A stretch of DNA of 64,000 bases from an uncultured Muribaculaceae bacterium. GTDB taxonomy: Bacteria; Bacillota_I; Bacilli_A; RF39; UBA660. The position numbers and the translations under genes were made by a program. The notes below the pieces were generated by a model. It was not told the DNA's origin. It did no database searches and saw nothing but the letters and a program-made list of their open reading frames with translations. Positions 37,095 through 41,463 of this stretch are shown here, piece by piece (position 1 is the stretch's first letter; each line of letters opens with the position of its first letter). The stretch covers positions 135,448 through 199,447 of the forward strand of contig CAYNFP010000001.1 in assembly GCA_964396655.1 (NCBI GenBank), read 5' to 3'.

Positions 37095-38789
37095 ATGAAA
37101 AATAAAGATATAGATAATGAAGAATATAGAGATTTAGAAGAACATAGATTATCAGTATTAAAAAGAACAGGAATTATAATTTTAGTTATTTTAGGTATAA
37201 TGATTATTTTCTTGTTTTTAAAAAGTTGTACTAAAACAGAGGATAATGATTTAAGTAAAACATTATTAGAAGCTGGTAAAGAATATTATGAATATAATGA
37301 GCATTTACTTCCGACAGCGGTAGGAGATTGCAAAAATGTTACTTTAACAACATTATCACAAGAAGGATTAATAAATAAAGCTAAGTATGCTGATTGTGGT
37401 AATGATAGTACATATGTAAAAGTTTGTAAGTTAGAAAGTGGTAAATATCATTTTGTAGCAATAATGGATTGTGTTAATGAAAAAACAGATGATTTATATG
37501 GAAGTTGGAAAGAAGGAACTGAAAAAGATATTATTTCTGATTCTTCTGATATAAAATTTTTCTTCCAAGTTCAATATTTGGATACAACTAATGCAAATGT
37601 AGGAAATAGTGAAGAATATTGGGAAGATGAGATTCCATATTCAAAATATAAAACAGAAGCTGTAACTAAGTATTATAGATATAAAGATTTGCAATATATT
37701 TGGAATATTACATCTAAAAGATATTATCCAGGGGATGCTACAAGCATAGCGAATATAAAAGAATATTATATAACTTCACCAAGTGCTGATTATAAATATA
37801 AAGATAATGAAAATACTAAAGTATCAAAATATTTTAGTACAACAGAAGGAAAAATATATTGGGTAGATGAAAGTGGAAACCGTAACTTTGCTTTAACAGC
37901 CCCAGATAACGTTTATATTTATCCAGATAATCCTGTTTATCAAACAGGATATGCAACCAGAGTATGGACTGAAACATCTAAGCCTGTAACAGCGGATTCC
38001 ACTCAATTTTGGTATTGTTCAAGCCCAAATGATGAGAATCAAATAAGATCAACTGTGCCATGTGAAAATAACGTTAATAATTACACAATAACAGAAAGAA
38101 TGATATATTCTTGTGATGGAGGCCTTACTGAAGTAGGCCAAAATGGCGTATGTTATCAATGTACTGATGGCAAAGGTTTAAGAACTGATAGAAGTTCTTG
38201 TGGATATTATAGTGATTATGGGAATTATAGTAAAACTCCTTGTGATACTTCATCTGATTTATGTACAACTAAAATATTTACTGCATATCAATGGTATAAA
38301 TTAGTTGATGGTGAAAGGAAGTATTATCCAAGTAATTCTACTACTGCTTCAGGTGAGAAAACATATTATGGAGAATCTCCAGTAACAAGTCTTATTAAAG
38401 ATGTAACAACCACAACTACCGGATGGAAATGGTATAAAAAGTTGGATACTGAGACTACAAGTTATTATTCAACATCTCCTCAAACAGGAGCAACTAAAAC
38501 AGATACAAGTAGATGGACTGACTTCACAAAATGGTCAACTGCGGTACCTCAAAGTTTGGGTTCTGAAGGGACAAGGATGATTGAAACAAGAAATAAAATT
38601 AAATTGAAACAAATAACAGGAGATACTGATAGTTGGTTAAATTATAATGAAAAATATATGGAGTTAGATTCAATATTAACTTCACTTCAAGCTAAAGGTT
38701 ACAAAGTTTATTCACTTGATGATATAACATCTAGTGGCGAATTAAAATATAAAGTAAAGTTATTTGTTAGAAACAAGGAAGTGGAATAA
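37095..38789 (+). CDS. membrane-anchored protein with a large Cys/Tyr/Trp/Thr-rich extracytoplasmic domain
   Basis: N-in TM (GIIILVILGIMIIFLFL), then about 520 aa with at least 20 Cys and abundant Y/W/T. Overlaps the next gene by 1 nt (TAATG). Confidence 0.5.
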   Translation: MKNKDIDNEEYRDLEEHRLSVLKRTGIIILVILGIMIIFLFLKSCTKTEDNDLSKTLLEAGKEYYEYNEHLLPTAVGDCKNVTLTTLSQEGLINKAKYADCGNDSTYVKVCKLESGKYHFVAIMDCVNEKTDDLYGSWKEGTEKDIISDSSDIKFFFQVQYLDTTNANVGNSEEYWEDEIPYSKYKTEAVTKYYRYKDLQYIWNITSKRYYPGDATSIANIKEYYITSPSADYKYKDNENTKVSKYFSTTEGKIYWVDESGNRNFALTAPDNVYIYPDNPVYQTGYATRVWTETSKPVTADSTQFWYCSSPNDENQIRSTVPCENNVNNYTITERMIYSCDGGLTEVGQNGVCYQCTDGKGLRTDRSSCGYYSDYGNYSKTPCDTSSDLCTTKIFTAYQWYKLVDGERKYYPSNSTTASGEKTYYGESPVTSLIKDVTTTTTGWKWYKKLDTETTSYYSTSPQTGATKTDTSRWTDFTKWSTAVPQSLGSEGTRMIETRNKIKLKQITGDTDSWLNYNEKYMELDSILTSLQAKGYKVYSLDDITSSGELKYKVKLFVRNKEVE

Positions 38790-41224
38790 TGGAAAAAAGT
38801 GAATTATTATATAGATTAAGAACTATAGAAAGTAGTTTACCAACTGAAGGCATAGAAACTGAAAATAAACCAAAAATTATAGATAGTGTATATAATGGTT
38901 TTATAAAAAGTTATGAAAGGCTTATGAGCTTTGATTCAGGAGTGGTAGAATATGATGAAGAAGCTATAGAAAGTGAAAGATTAAAAATCGAATCATTAAG
39001 AAAAGAACGTAAAGTAGTAAAAGAAATTTTAGAAAAATCACGTTCTCAATATGCTATTTTGTCAGAAGAAATAGAAAATATGCAAAAAGCTATAGATGTA
39101 GAGTATCCTGAAATAATAAAAAATCATGAATTATTATTAAAAAAATATGATAACACAATTTCTAAAAGTTCACCTAATTTAAGTGAGTCTTTAATAAAAA
39201 TTAGAGATAAAGAATTTGAAAGAATACAATCTATTAAAAATCAAGAAAAAGCTTTAAGAAAAAAATTAGCTTCTAAAAAAGATAGACTATTAAAAATTCA
39301 AAGTTTAATTCAACAAAGAGAGAGAATTACAAAAGAACTATCTTTGGATATTGAAGATGTCAAAAGAAATTTAGATGAACTTCAAAAAGGAATTAAACCA
39401 ACATCAGAAGAAAGAGAGAATTTGGAATTAAAAGCAGAAGTTTTTTATCGTACATATGAATATTTATCAAAAGATCCTAAAACAGAACTTAATAATATTA
39501 TAGCTAGATTTGAAAAAGGTGAATTGACAGAAGAACAAGTAAAATCAAAACTTATTGATATTAAGGGGTTATTAAACTCTGAATTATATGACACTGAAGA
39601 AATTAAAACACCAATGACACCTGAAACATTAGAAAATCATAGAGCTATAATTAGTTCAAGAATCAATGAATTAAGAGAGAAACTTGCTGATGATTCTAAT
39701 TATATGGAAAGAACTGACAAATATGATGCTGATATTGATAATATAATTGCATATAAAGAAATGATTGATGATATTGAGAGAGAAAAAACAAAAATTCAAA
39801 TGGATAGTACAGAAAGAAAATCATTAATAAAATCTAATATAAATAAAATTAATAAATGCAGACGTTTATTAGAAGAAGCTAAAACAGAGAAAGAATCTGT
39901 TATGAAAAGTAAATTATCGGCTGCGGAAAAGTCTAAGAAAATTAAACTTATAGATTCAAAAGTTAAAGAAATTGAAGCTAAGAAAAAAGATTTAATAAAT
40001 CAAAATTTAAGAATTGCTTCAATAGATGAAGAAACTGAAAAAGATATTTATATAGCAAATTCAAGGCAGGGAGAATATCAAAAAAGAATTGGAGAATGTA
40101 GGAAAAGATTATATTCTATAAATGAAACTGAAAGAGAAAGAGATATAAGAGAATTAGAAGAACAAGAAGCATTGCTTTTTGCGGCACATACAAACGCAGA
40201 TGTTTTAGAAAGCCCACTTTTAACAGAATTAGATTCTCTTATAGAATTAACAAGTATTAAAGGTAAGGGAATAGAGCCTGAAGAAGATACCCCAGTATTT
40301 GTTAAAAAATTTACGCCTGAGCAAAAAAAATTATATGAAGATATAATGATGGGATTAAGTCCTGATGAAGCAAAAGAAATAGAAGAAAAAGCAGAAGAAA
40401 AACATAAAAAAGTTGCACCAATAGCACCTCCTAAAAAACATAAAGTAAGAAAATTTAAAGAAGCACCTAAAGAATTTTGGGATAAAGTTGGAACATGGTT
40501 TAAAAAGAATTGGGGCAAAGTTGTTGCAGGTGCAATAGTTGCATCACTTTTGGTTGCGGTTTCTATAAGCGCTTTTATAAAACCTCAAGCAAGTCCAGCA
40601 ACTGAGGTAGTTACAATTACTCAAACTCTTCCAAAAGATTTTGGAACAACCAATAATATACCAGCAGCTGAAGTGACCCCGGAAATACCTGAAGCAGAGG
40701 TTGAACCTACAATTCCGGATAAACCAAAAGATCCAGCAACACCAAAAGATCCAGGACAACCAACAACTCCTGAAACTCCAGAAGTAACTCCCCCGGTTAT
40801 AGAAGATAAAACATATGTTTTAGCAACTGAAGTACCGGCAGGTACAGGAGATTCATATTATGCTGACCCTACAGTTGCGCGTTTAGATGGCGAATCAGTG
40901 GTACATTATGATGAAACTACAGGCATTGAAGTAAATGTTGATTCTGAAGGAACAAAAATTACTAAATTAGCTGATGGAAGTACTGTGGTTGAACGTGGGG
41001 CTGAAGAGGTTACTCCTAATACAGCAACAACTGTTAAAATTACAAATCCAGATATGACTCCTGGAGCAGAGGAATCAAAATTACCGGAAGCCAAAACAAT
41101 CGAAGCAGCAGTAGCGGATGGCTCAATAACAAGCGCTGAAGCAGCTAAAGCACAAGAATTTTTTGATACTCAATTTGGTCAAATAAATCAAGACGAACAA
41201 ACAAAAGGTTTAGGAGGATTATAA
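38789..41224 (+). CDS. large coiled-coil protein with a single TM helix and a Pro/Thr-rich extracellular tail
   Basis: About 570 aa of E/K/R-rich heptad-like sequence, TM WGKVVAGAIVASLLVAVSISAFI, then a PT-rich linker (PEIPEAEVEPTIPDKPKDPATPKDPGQPTTPETPEVTPP) and a roughly 130-aa beta-rich domain. Confidence 0.5.
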   Translation: MEKSELLYRLRTIESSLPTEGIETENKPKIIDSVYNGFIKSYERLMSFDSGVVEYDEEAIESERLKIESLRKERKVVKEILEKSRSQYAILSEEIENMQKAIDVEYPEIIKNHELLLKKYDNTISKSSPNLSESLIKIRDKEFERIQSIKNQEKALRKKLASKKDRLLKIQSLIQQRERITKELSLDIEDVKRNLDELQKGIKPTSEERENLELKAEVFYRTYEYLSKDPKTELNNIIARFEKGELTEEQVKSKLIDIKGLLNSELYDTEEIKTPMTPETLENHRAIISSRINELREKLADDSNYMERTDKYDADIDNIIAYKEMIDDIEREKTKIQMDSTERKSLIKSNINKINKCRRLLEEAKTEKESVMKSKLSAAEKSKKIKLIDSKVKEIEAKKKDLINQNLRIASIDEETEKDIYIANSRQGEYQKRIGECRKRLYSINETERERDIRELEEQEALLFAAHTNADVLESPLLTELDSLIELTSIKGKGIEPEEDTPVFVKKFTPEQKKLYEDIMMGLSPDEAKEIEEKAEEKHKKVAPIAPPKKHKVRKFKEAPKEFWDKVGTWFKKNWGKVVAGAIVASLLVAVSISAFIKPQASPATEVVTITQTLPKDFGTTNNIPAAEVTPEIPEAEVEPTIPDKPKDPATPKDPGQPTTPETPEVTPPVIEDKTYVLATEVPAGTGDSYYADPTVARLDGESVVHYDETTGIEVNVDSEGTKITKLADGSTVVERGAEEVTPNTATTVKITNPDMTPGAEESKLPEAKTIEAAVADGSITSAEAAKAQEFFDTQFGQINQDEQTKGLGGL

Positions 41225-41463
41225 TGGAAAACAGGACAAGAAAAATTATTGAATTAGAAAATGATGAAGAATATCTAATTTTAAGACAAATATTATATAA
41301 AAATGAAACATATTATGTAACTACAAAAGTATTAAATAATGGGTCAGATTTTGCTAAAGAAATTACTTTATTGAAAGAAAGTAATGAAAACAATGATATA
41401 TATGTAACGGTAGTAGAGGATCCTAATATATTAAAAACAATATTAGGTCATGTTGAATTTTAA
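41224..41463 (+). CDS. small hypothetical protein (79 aa)
   Basis: TAATG-coupled to the upstream gene and followed by a terminator hairpin at 41473-41500. Confidence 0.4.
   Translation: MENRTRKIIELENDEEYLILRQILYKNETYYVTTKVLNNGSDFAKEITLLKESNENNDIYVTVVEDPNILKTILGHVEF

Follow-up and report, generated by a model that had tools for sequence, protein, structure and literature searches.

In a 64-kb stretch of DNA from an uncultured bacterium (64,000 nucleotides of contig CAYNFP010000001.1; hereafter the window, with positions counted from its first letter), three genes were found between the sporulation sigma factor genes sigE and sigG. These genes are designated A, B and C, and together the A-B-C triad. 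It is highly likely that the triad is autonomous and not sporulation-specific, and its products probably form a lineage-specific envelope complex that is not part of sporulation. The combined reading, in which a self-contained envelope operon was inserted between sigE and sigG, is independent of sporulation and encodes a trans-envelope display or tether complex, is favored with a little better than even confidence. The surface-display or tether mechanism, taken by itself, is put forward tentatively, at somewhat less than an even chance. An earlier note on this DNA had offered two readings, a sporulation-stage envelope or engulfment complex and an unrelated surface system that landed in the sigma locus. 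The second and less exciting of the two is the right one; it fits an operon that has its own conserved sigma-A-type promoter and terminator, occurs in at least five other genomic contexts and is retained in syntenic relatives without the sigma factor genes.

Six genes of the region lie on the + strand in the order spoIIGA (35535-36344), sigE (36341-37021), A (37095-38789; 564 amino acids, aa), B (38789-41224; 811 aa), C (41224-41463; 79 aa) and sigG (41552-42325); ylmC, lspA and rluD come after them. That three genes joined by TAATG overlaps occupy this site had been noted before, and it is borne out by the coordinates of the open reading frames (ORFs) and by the Pfam and NCBIfam assignments of the flanking genes. 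The spoIIGA product, the pro-sigma-E protease, matches Pfam Peptidase_U4 (1.8e-41) and its gene, which belongs to the upstream flank and not to the module, overlaps sigE (36341 versus 36344). The best NCBIfam match of the sigE-type sporulation sigma factor is SigE (PRK08301, 6.2e-93) at 310.7 bits, slightly under the equivalog cutoff of 339, and the sigma factor gene of the downstream flank is of the sigG type (NCBIfam SigG, PRK08215, 1.1e-102). The distance from the sigE stop to the sigG start is 4530 nucleotides (nt). One-base TAATG overlaps are seen at both the A/B and the B/C junctions, each with a Shine-Dalgarno sequence within the preceding gene, and a GGAGG ribosome-binding site (RBS) of A was read at 37084-37088 (+ strand). 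The three ORFs are not fragments of one disrupted gene, as more than 25 independent loci have three ORFs arranged alike and of similar size.

The triad carries the signals of an operon: its own conserved sigma-A-type extended -10 promoter, strong RBSs, translational coupling and its own terminator. In the window, the promoter region (37045-37071, + strand) contains the extended -10 element TGcTAAAAT at 37050-37058 (TGCTAAAAT), which is orthologous to the element of the relatives L001, L010, L032 and L034; an alternative pairing in the same region is TTGTAT (37045-37050) and TATACT (37066-37071) at a spacing of 15 nt. Relatives were examined as loci of 18-21 kb each, given here by L numbers (18 kb each for L032 and L034). 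Of 23 non-redundant loci, 22 have the sequence TGnTAnnnT no more than 50 nt before the start codon of A, compared with 22% by chance (binomial p ~1e-13), and in 18 of the 23 a TTG -35 was found as well at the right spacing (1.9% expected, p ~4e-27). A promoter scan of the window by itself was uninformative (52 sites versus 55.8 expected); only the cross-locus comparison carried information. Whatever gene precedes A, the triad promoter looks to be of the sigma-A (vegetative) type, and from promoter and RBSs the triad is probably well expressed. The search for sigma-E or sigma-K motifs that the earlier note had named as a check (scan of 37000-41560) gave none in the insert, and CATA is absent from the 73-nt region upstream of A. 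No sporulation-sigma promoter was found for the triad, the sole sigma-F/G motif in 37000-41560 being that of sigG.

As a unit, the triad is conserved in more than 25 loci of uncultured low-GC Bacilli. A and C occur together in every complete locus, and between them, at a spacing of 0-20 nt, lies a B-type ORF with a single transmembrane (TM) helix. Comparison of synteny, which had also been proposed earlier, placed the triad between sigE and sigG in one clade only, with at least five other genomic contexts elsewhere, and the address is not shared by all relatives. In the window, L001/2, L006 and L008, sigE lies upstream and sigG-ylmC-lspA-rluD downstream. L009, L010 and L012 have spoIIGA-sigE upstream; the L009 and L010 loci end before the downstream flank and L012 has another gene there. 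Elsewhere the triad follows rnr-smpB (L003/4, L014 and L018), dnaE (L028) or genes for an HD protein and a tRNA synthetase (L007/L027), the last of these although its A is 60% identical to that of the window. In the most distant clade (L022:9246-16235, L024:9062-16655 and L033:2525-11350), a pseudouridine synthase gene and a 220-aa Amidase_3 gene lie upstream, the latter not always immediately before the triad, and Abi_2 and an HtrA-type protease gene downstream. With rplM-rpsI upstream, as in B. subtilis, this Amidase_3 gene is presumably cwlD-like. The triad products represent a conserved, uncharacterised three-protein family (about 140 A and 320 C proteins) known only from uncultured gut and digester Bacilli. 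Six of the metagenome-assembled genome (MAG) records, L006, L007, L008, L009, L012 and L023, are titled 'uncultured Muribaculaceae bacterium', with a Bacilli-type locus, spoIIGA, sigE and about 23% GC; they are probably mislabelled bins.

A position that differs from genome to genome, an Abi_2 gene that comes immediately after the triad in one clade and a local rise in GC to 0.40 in the 3' part of B would suit mobile-element cargo or an anti-phage defence island integrated in the sigma locus. This explanation is very improbable. The flanks examined showed no integrase, transposase or repeats, PADLOC gave 0 matches, blastn against phages gave none, and PHROGs gave none for A or B and a match of C only at E = 0.1. 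Synteny blocks hold down to 36% identity of A, which argues for vertical descent, and the GC rise matches the Pro, Thr, Ala and Gly codons of the low-complexity ectodomain of B.

The bearing of the sigma factor genes on the triad can be judged from L032, a 'Tenericutes bacterium' MAG, and L034. Their gene order, ppiB, folD, rpsD, murB, rpmB, a gene like the one upstream of spoIIGA in the window (x255, described below), A-B-C, lspA, rluD, rhomboid and lexA, matches that of L001. No spoIIGA, sigE, sigG or ylmC was detected by tblastn in the 18 kb of either locus, and only 264/86 nt and 88/52 nt are left at the positions expected for these genes. A and C of L032 are 50% and 77% identical to those of L001, and both loci carry the same TTGT..-TGnTAAAAT promoter. 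In a neighbor-joining tree of A, the relocated L007 falls beside the window, and L032 and L034 nest within the sigE-flanked clade, from which it follows that the sigE-sigG address is ancestral for that clade. As far as the sequences go, these observations fit a 'natural deletion', in which the L032/L034 line lost the sporulation genes to either side of the triad and retained the triad itself. The two loci provide a clean example of a retained operon with sporulation genes absent on both sides. Sortases are reported to be absent from the RFN20 and ML615J-28 orders, and sporulation to have been lost in them repeatedly (PMC10868615); the window organism has been placed in neither, and the triad kept beside lost sporulation genes fits such repeated loss in related uncultured orders.

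Several observations weigh against independence from sporulation. The triad stands beside sporulation genes in two separate contexts, between sigE and sigG throughout one clade and beside the cwlD-like amidase gene in another, and all other judgeable loci have spore genes nearby (SpoVIF, Gpr, CotZ and SleB-type). The loss of sporulation in L032 and L034 is deduced from 18 kb each and not from whole genomes. The -35 of the window's own triad promoter is poor, and the promoter call consists of consensus and conservation only. An intrinsic terminator follows sigE (37012-37042, + strand), as the earlier note had stated, and its hairpin and U9 run are present; it is a weak one, with an AU-only stem of 9 bp (RNA fold -5.6 kcal/mol, z = -3.1). 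Read-through past it is plausible, so that a spoIIG transcript could enter the triad at the onset of sporulation, and some sporulation-linked expression of the triad is possible. Bitopic proteins with large ectodomains are, in addition, typical of engulfment machinery. On these grounds the triad could encode an envelope or engulfment complex of the sporulation stage, made by read-through from spoIIGA-sigE, in the mother cell or when sporulation begins, and acting at the septal or engulfing membrane. We regard this as improbable. The sigma-A-type promoter is conserved across all contexts, and motifs for sigma-E, K, F or G are absent from the insert. A, B and C have no homology to any Spo, Ger or Cot family in Pfam and NCBIfam. 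In other lineages the triad moved beside housekeeping genes, and L032 and L034 keep it at a syntenic site that lacks spoIIGA, sigE, sigG and ylmC. A gene of the sporulation regulon would be expected to be confined to spore formers and to disappear together with sporulation genes, which the 18 kb examined of each of these two loci does not bear out. The presence of the triad next to sporulation genes in two independent contexts is treated as coincidence, although it may be meaningful. That the triad lies within the best-known sigma locus of sporulation does not make it part of sporulation, and a tempting assignment by guilt of association is corrected here.

Between C and sigG, the termination and the sigG promoter-like element described earlier were both recovered. 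The terminator of the triad operon (41466-41501, + strand) has a 15-bp stem and a U-run, with a folding energy of -13.9 kcal/mol (z = -5.5; 0 of 200 shuffles as stable). It is followed by the sigma-F/G-type promoter of sigG found by motif scan, GAATA-N18-CAAAATA at 41504-41533, which is the sole motif of this type on the + strand of the 64-kb window and is also kept ahead of sigG in L001, L008 and L006. RNA folding predicted a sigG leader hairpin (window 41502-41551; L001:11944-11995; L008:14509-14544; -12.7 to -17.2 kcal/mol) in which the sigG RBS is base-paired to a segment that overlaps the sigma-F/G promoter. No terminator separates C from sigG in L001 and L008, where transcription from the triad promoter would run on into sigG; the RBS-pairing hairpin is present there instead. 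It resembles a hairpin of B. subtilis by which read-through transcripts are kept silent and which transcripts started at PsigG cannot form (PMC5942855). The terminator after C, the RBS-sequestering hairpin or both would thus stop vegetative read-through from making sigma-G.

Protein A can be assigned to the pilin superfamily as a derivative of modular pilins, in which the class III signal peptide has been swapped for a plain signal anchor. The earlier note missed this relationship, while its description of A as a membrane anchor with a Cys/Tyr/Trp/Thr-rich ectodomain of about 520 aa agrees with the TM helix at residues 15-45 and the ectodomain of 519 aa (Tyr 9.4%, Thr 12.3%, Trp 2.3%, 12 Cys). 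A search of 5.8 billion proteins returned 142 homologs of A. They are all unnamed and have no Pfam domain; their sources are MAGs carrying the labels Bacilli, Bacillota or Mycoplasmatota, along with 'Clostridium sp. CAG:1000' and 'Acholeplasma sp. CAG:878'. Structure prediction of the Cys-rich ectodomain had been suggested; AlphaFold2 (AF2), run on an alignment of 77 sequences, gave a confident model of A (predicted local distance difference test score, pLDDT, 89.8) in which the TM helix is followed by a helix on a small sheet (53-134), then by long beta-hairpins over about 380 aa, and at the C-terminus by an alpha/beta subdomain. The N-terminus is a 24-aa acidic cytoplasmic tail. The TM helix (37137-37229, + strand), a helix in the AF2 model, occupies the position of pilin alpha1-N without Gly-1 and Glu+5, and is followed by a pilin-type alpha/beta head with four conserved Cys (residues ~50-135; 37242-37499, + strand).

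The link to pilins came from a hidden Markov model (HMM) search of 1.84 billion representatives, which gave 1188 relatives of A. About 70 are full-length members of the family, and most of the others share the TM helix and the first ectodomain alone. Many of the remote relatives are genuine prepilins: P0218, P0231 and P0240 match Pfam N_methyl, and the strict motif G-F-T-L-x-E is found in 14 of 58 remote relatives, with about six more having Ala at -1. The head of A matches the head of P0218 at E = 3e-9 with the TM helix left out, and P0230 joins a real prepilin N-terminus to a complete A-type ectodomain. A therefore shares with pilins and modular pilins the hydrophobic N-terminal helix and the homologous alpha/beta head, and lacks their class III signal peptide, that is, a short leader ending in Gly/Ala, about 21 hydrophobic residues and Glu+5. 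A regular expression for this peptide matched neither window A nor any of 60 representatives of the A family proper, and Pfam N_methyl has no match to A. No B or C lies beside the stand-alone relatives P0205, P0210 and P0230, which makes B and C specific to the A family proper. A modular-pilin ectodomain can thus move from a class III signal peptide to a plain membrane anchor with dedicated partners.

After its TM helix, A of the window has a juxtamembrane L-K-S-C (residues 42-45; 37218-37229). In the 22 loci compared, a lipobox-like [LI]-K-[GSA]-C stands behind the TM helix in 16 A proteins and behind the internal TM helix in 10 B proteins, window B not being among these. Compared with the lipobox [LVI][ASTVI][GAS]C, the L-K-[GSA]-C of A (16/22) is atypical in its Lys at -2, its n-region is long and acidic, and the Cys is missing in 6 of the 22. 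A disulfide between A and B through the juxtamembrane Cys was considered and rejected, since the presence of Cys is uncorrelated between the partners.

Homology of the head of A to prepilin heads, and the occurrence of the full ectodomain on a genuine prepilin, raise the question of an accessory role in a type IV filament (type IV pilus or Com), where A would dock at or prime the filament uncleaved and B and C would replace PilM, PilN and PilO. A bona fide prepilin is encoded in the window at 1262-2911, and a T2SSE ATPase together with a small N_methyl pilin lies 3-5 kb downstream of the triad in L032 and L034, the only loci with that ATPase at 3-5 kb from the triad. A filament accessory is nevertheless unlikely. 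Gly/Ala-1 and Glu+5 are missing in all 60 representatives of the A family, and B and C have no similarity to PilM, PilN, PilO or any Pfam family. There is no pilB, pilC or pilD adjacent to the triad in the window or in most loci, and no Pfam match to the PilB, PilC or PilD families was found among about 38 of the 73 window ORFs of at least 100 aa, including all from 32190 to the end. Pilin-like genes are scattered singly in such genomes, and proximity to one carries little weight.

This scattering was observed directly. The window prepilin (MRNKKGFTLIELLAVI), a genuine one of 549 aa, matches Pfam N_methyl (4e-8) and Gly_rich_2, and its gene stands alone between an nrnA-like DHH gene and engB/der GTPase genes; a close paralogy to A was rejected on comparison. 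In L029:1-11509, part of a 914-kb contig of a spore-forming relative with an SSPI gene, at least four pilin-like genes are scattered singly among genes for ribosomal proteins and translation factors. N_methyl is present in three of them; the fourth encodes the A-like prepilin P0230, for which the prepilin N-terminus was recognized by eye and by regular expression only. Such dispersal of single pilin genes among housekeeping genes is an unusual organisation.

Protein B is a fast-evolving bitopic protein. Residues 1-574 contain 29% Glu+Lys and few Pro or Gly, and composition and heptad periodicity indicate a cytoplasmic coiled coil of about 574 aa, within which residues 215-265 are a conserved segment. 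A single TM helix (residues 575-601; 40511-40591, + strand; hydropathy scan) separates it from a C-terminal ectodomain of 210 aa with 15% Thr and 10.5% Pro that is Glu-rich too. The coiled coil of about 570 aa, the TM helix and the Pro/Thr-rich ectodomain described earlier were all recovered, but the coiled coil is segmented and not one continuous stretch, as the heptad periodicity falls in separate blocks. B-type ORFs range from 440 to 1030 aa; every complete locus has one, its single TM helix lying about two-thirds along. B has no match in Pfam, PHROG, PADLOC or PDB, and weak matches to SMC/Rad50-type proteins were dismissed as coiled-coil noise. B is split into two ORFs or partly uncalled in L007/L027:11704-14618, L012:10083-13774 and L033:6571-8977, where frameshifts, low-complexity assembly errors or real decay could be the cause.

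Protein C is a small acidic cytoplasmic protein with 319 homologs. Its AF2 model (pLDDT 90.8) is a five-stranded antiparallel sheet with a C-terminal helix, and the matches of this fold are generic only. C appears distantly DUF1292-like: it scores 15.4 bits (E = 0.035) against Pfam DUF1292 (PF06949), below the gathering threshold of 24 bits, and 6 of 15 C family members match DUF1292 with most of the profile covered (best E 0.0028). A TNF-ligand match of the C profile in PDB (E = 4.6e-5, with no domain passing) was rejected as spurious. None of the three proteins scored above threshold in Pfam, NCBIfam, PHROGs or PADLOC.

The predicted topology of the three proteins, A and B bitopic with the N-terminus inside and C cytoplasmic, allows a mechanism to be proposed for the triad. 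A three-gene operon of 4.4 kb would have been inserted by chance into the sigma locus, separating sigE from sigG, in the ancestor from which one clade of uncultured, low-GC, host-associated Bacilli descends. A, presumably neither cleavable by prepilin peptidase nor polymerisable, would stay anchored in the membrane and project its elongated Tyr/Trp/Thr/Cys-rich beta ectodomain of about 520 aa outward. B, made in a fixed ratio with A in the same membrane, would pass through the wall with its Pro/Thr-rich spacer, and its cytoplasmic coiled coil may oligomerise or tether the complex. C, small, acidic and DUF1292-like, would bind the cytoplasmic part of B. A-B-C would thus be a constitutively expressed trans-envelope complex, the most likely function of which would be sortase-independent surface display, adhesion or envelope tethering. 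A sortase-independent display role ties in with the published absence of sortases in related orders (PMC10868615), and modular pilins typically are ligand-binding modules (PMC8179133). If correct, such a display or tether device would help to explain how cell surfaces are built in sortase-poor, wall-reduced Bacilli. The triad is a combination of a modular pilin-like surface protein, which is of a known kind, with two novel partners. A broader suggestion, less likely than not, is that, in genome-reduced host-associated Bacilli, a permanently membrane-anchored pilin-fold protein that no longer assembles filaments is coupled through B and the DUF1292-like adaptor C to the cytoplasm, as a sortase-independent display platform or as an envelope-cytoplasm tether or cytoskeletal element, and matters enough to outlast sporulation where that is lost.

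Three points tell against this mechanism. The beta-rich ectodomain of A has no structural match in PDB, and a PDB sequence search with the A profile also gave nothing meaningful, so that 'adhesion or display' is argued by analogy only. B is too divergent to be followed, a word-based homology search having returned 2 proteins only. The physical association of A, B and C in one complex is what we infer from the operon and the predicted proteins.

A lineage-specific scaffold for division or morphogenesis, similar to C. difficile MldABC, EzrA or MapZ, was also considered, in which the coiled coil of B would link the divisome or cytoskeleton to the wall via A. What remains of the dcw/division region surrounds the triad: sigE-sigG-ylmC-lspA-rluD in the window, and a penicillin-binding protein gene with mraY and ftsW next to the L027 triad. 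The composition of a bitopic coiled-coil protein with small cytoplasmic partners is also like that of the narrow-lineage MldABC operon (PMC13584725), and the spoIVFA/FB-like genes of the window come immediately after radC, without mreBCD or minCD in the interval. Against this, A, B and C contain no SPOR, LysM, PASTA or other wall-binding or divisome domain in Pfam, the smpB and dnaE contexts are unrelated to division, and a pilin-derived ectodomain is unprecedented in divisome proteins. A division scaffold is accordingly given a low probability, and the display or tether complex is retained as the proposal for the triad.

Other features of the window were recorded in the course of the analysis. 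Directly upstream of spoIIGA, a conserved protein of 255 aa without a Pfam match (x255) is encoded at 34755-35522, with a promoter-like site TTGCTA-16-TG-TATAAT at 34659-34686; homologs occupy the equivalent site in L006, L001, L032 and L034, also where spoIIGA and sigE are lacking. Downstream of sigG lies the gene for an OLE (ornate large extremophilic) RNA (42406-42969; Rfam RF01071, 356 bits), with a perfect sigma-A promoter, TTGACA-17-TGnTATAAT (42379-42407), ahead of it and an OapA-like membrane ORF (42891-43547) behind. This OLE RNA/OapA pair is interposed between sigG and ylmC just as the triad is in the sporulation/division block; oapA is at the same place in L006 and not in L001 or L008. 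At 58155-60187, the genes directly behind radC encode an M23 peptidase (spoIVFA-like) and an M50 peptidase (spoIVFB-like). The B. subtilis chromosome has mreBCD and minCD between radC and spoIVFA, and they seem to be missing from the syntenic site in the window. Four ORFs have no Pfam family at E 1e-4 or better: 60216-62432 (738 aa) and, on the - strand, 46905-47816 (303 aa), 48103-48771 (222 aa) and 55683-56627 (314 aa).

Among known systems, protein A is most readily compared with the modular type IV pilins, such as PilB and PilC of Streptococcus sanguinis (PMC8179133), which likewise consist of a hydrophobic helix, a small alpha/beta head and a large C-terminal module. A differs from them in having a 24-aa acidic cytoplasmic tail in place of a class III signal peptide, in lying outside any pil operon, in being always partnered with B and C, and in a beta-rich module without a PDB match. 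C is similar to DUF1292/UPF0473 proteins (B. subtilis YrzB type) in length and beta-rich pattern, although it scores below threshold; DUF1292 itself has no known function, and the similarity thus gives no mechanistic information. SpoIIQ-SpoIIIAH and other engulfment complexes are also bitopic, with large extracytoplasmic domains, and are encoded near sporulation genes. The triad has no homology to them (no LytM or YscJ/FliF-like domains) and no sporulation promoter, and it persists in loci that lack the sporulation sigma genes. Both the triad and MldA-MldB-MldC of Clostridioides difficile (PMC13584725) are lineage-restricted three-gene operons for a single-pass membrane protein, with portions in the cytosol and outside the cell, and for small cytoplasmic partners. 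The likeness is one of architecture only, as no sequence relationship was found, and MldA has a SPOR domain whereas the triad is pilin-derived and without a wall-binding domain. Finally, the flanks resemble the known spoIIGA-sigE-sigG locus in the overlap of spoIIGA with sigE, in the succession of sigG, ylmC, lspA and rluD, and in the sigma-F/G-type promoter and RBS-pairing hairpin of sigG. They differ in that sigE and sigG are split here by 4.5 kb with an independent operon of apparent sigma-A type, and in that the potential read-through into sigG in L001 and L008 would come from the triad promoter and not from PspoIIG.

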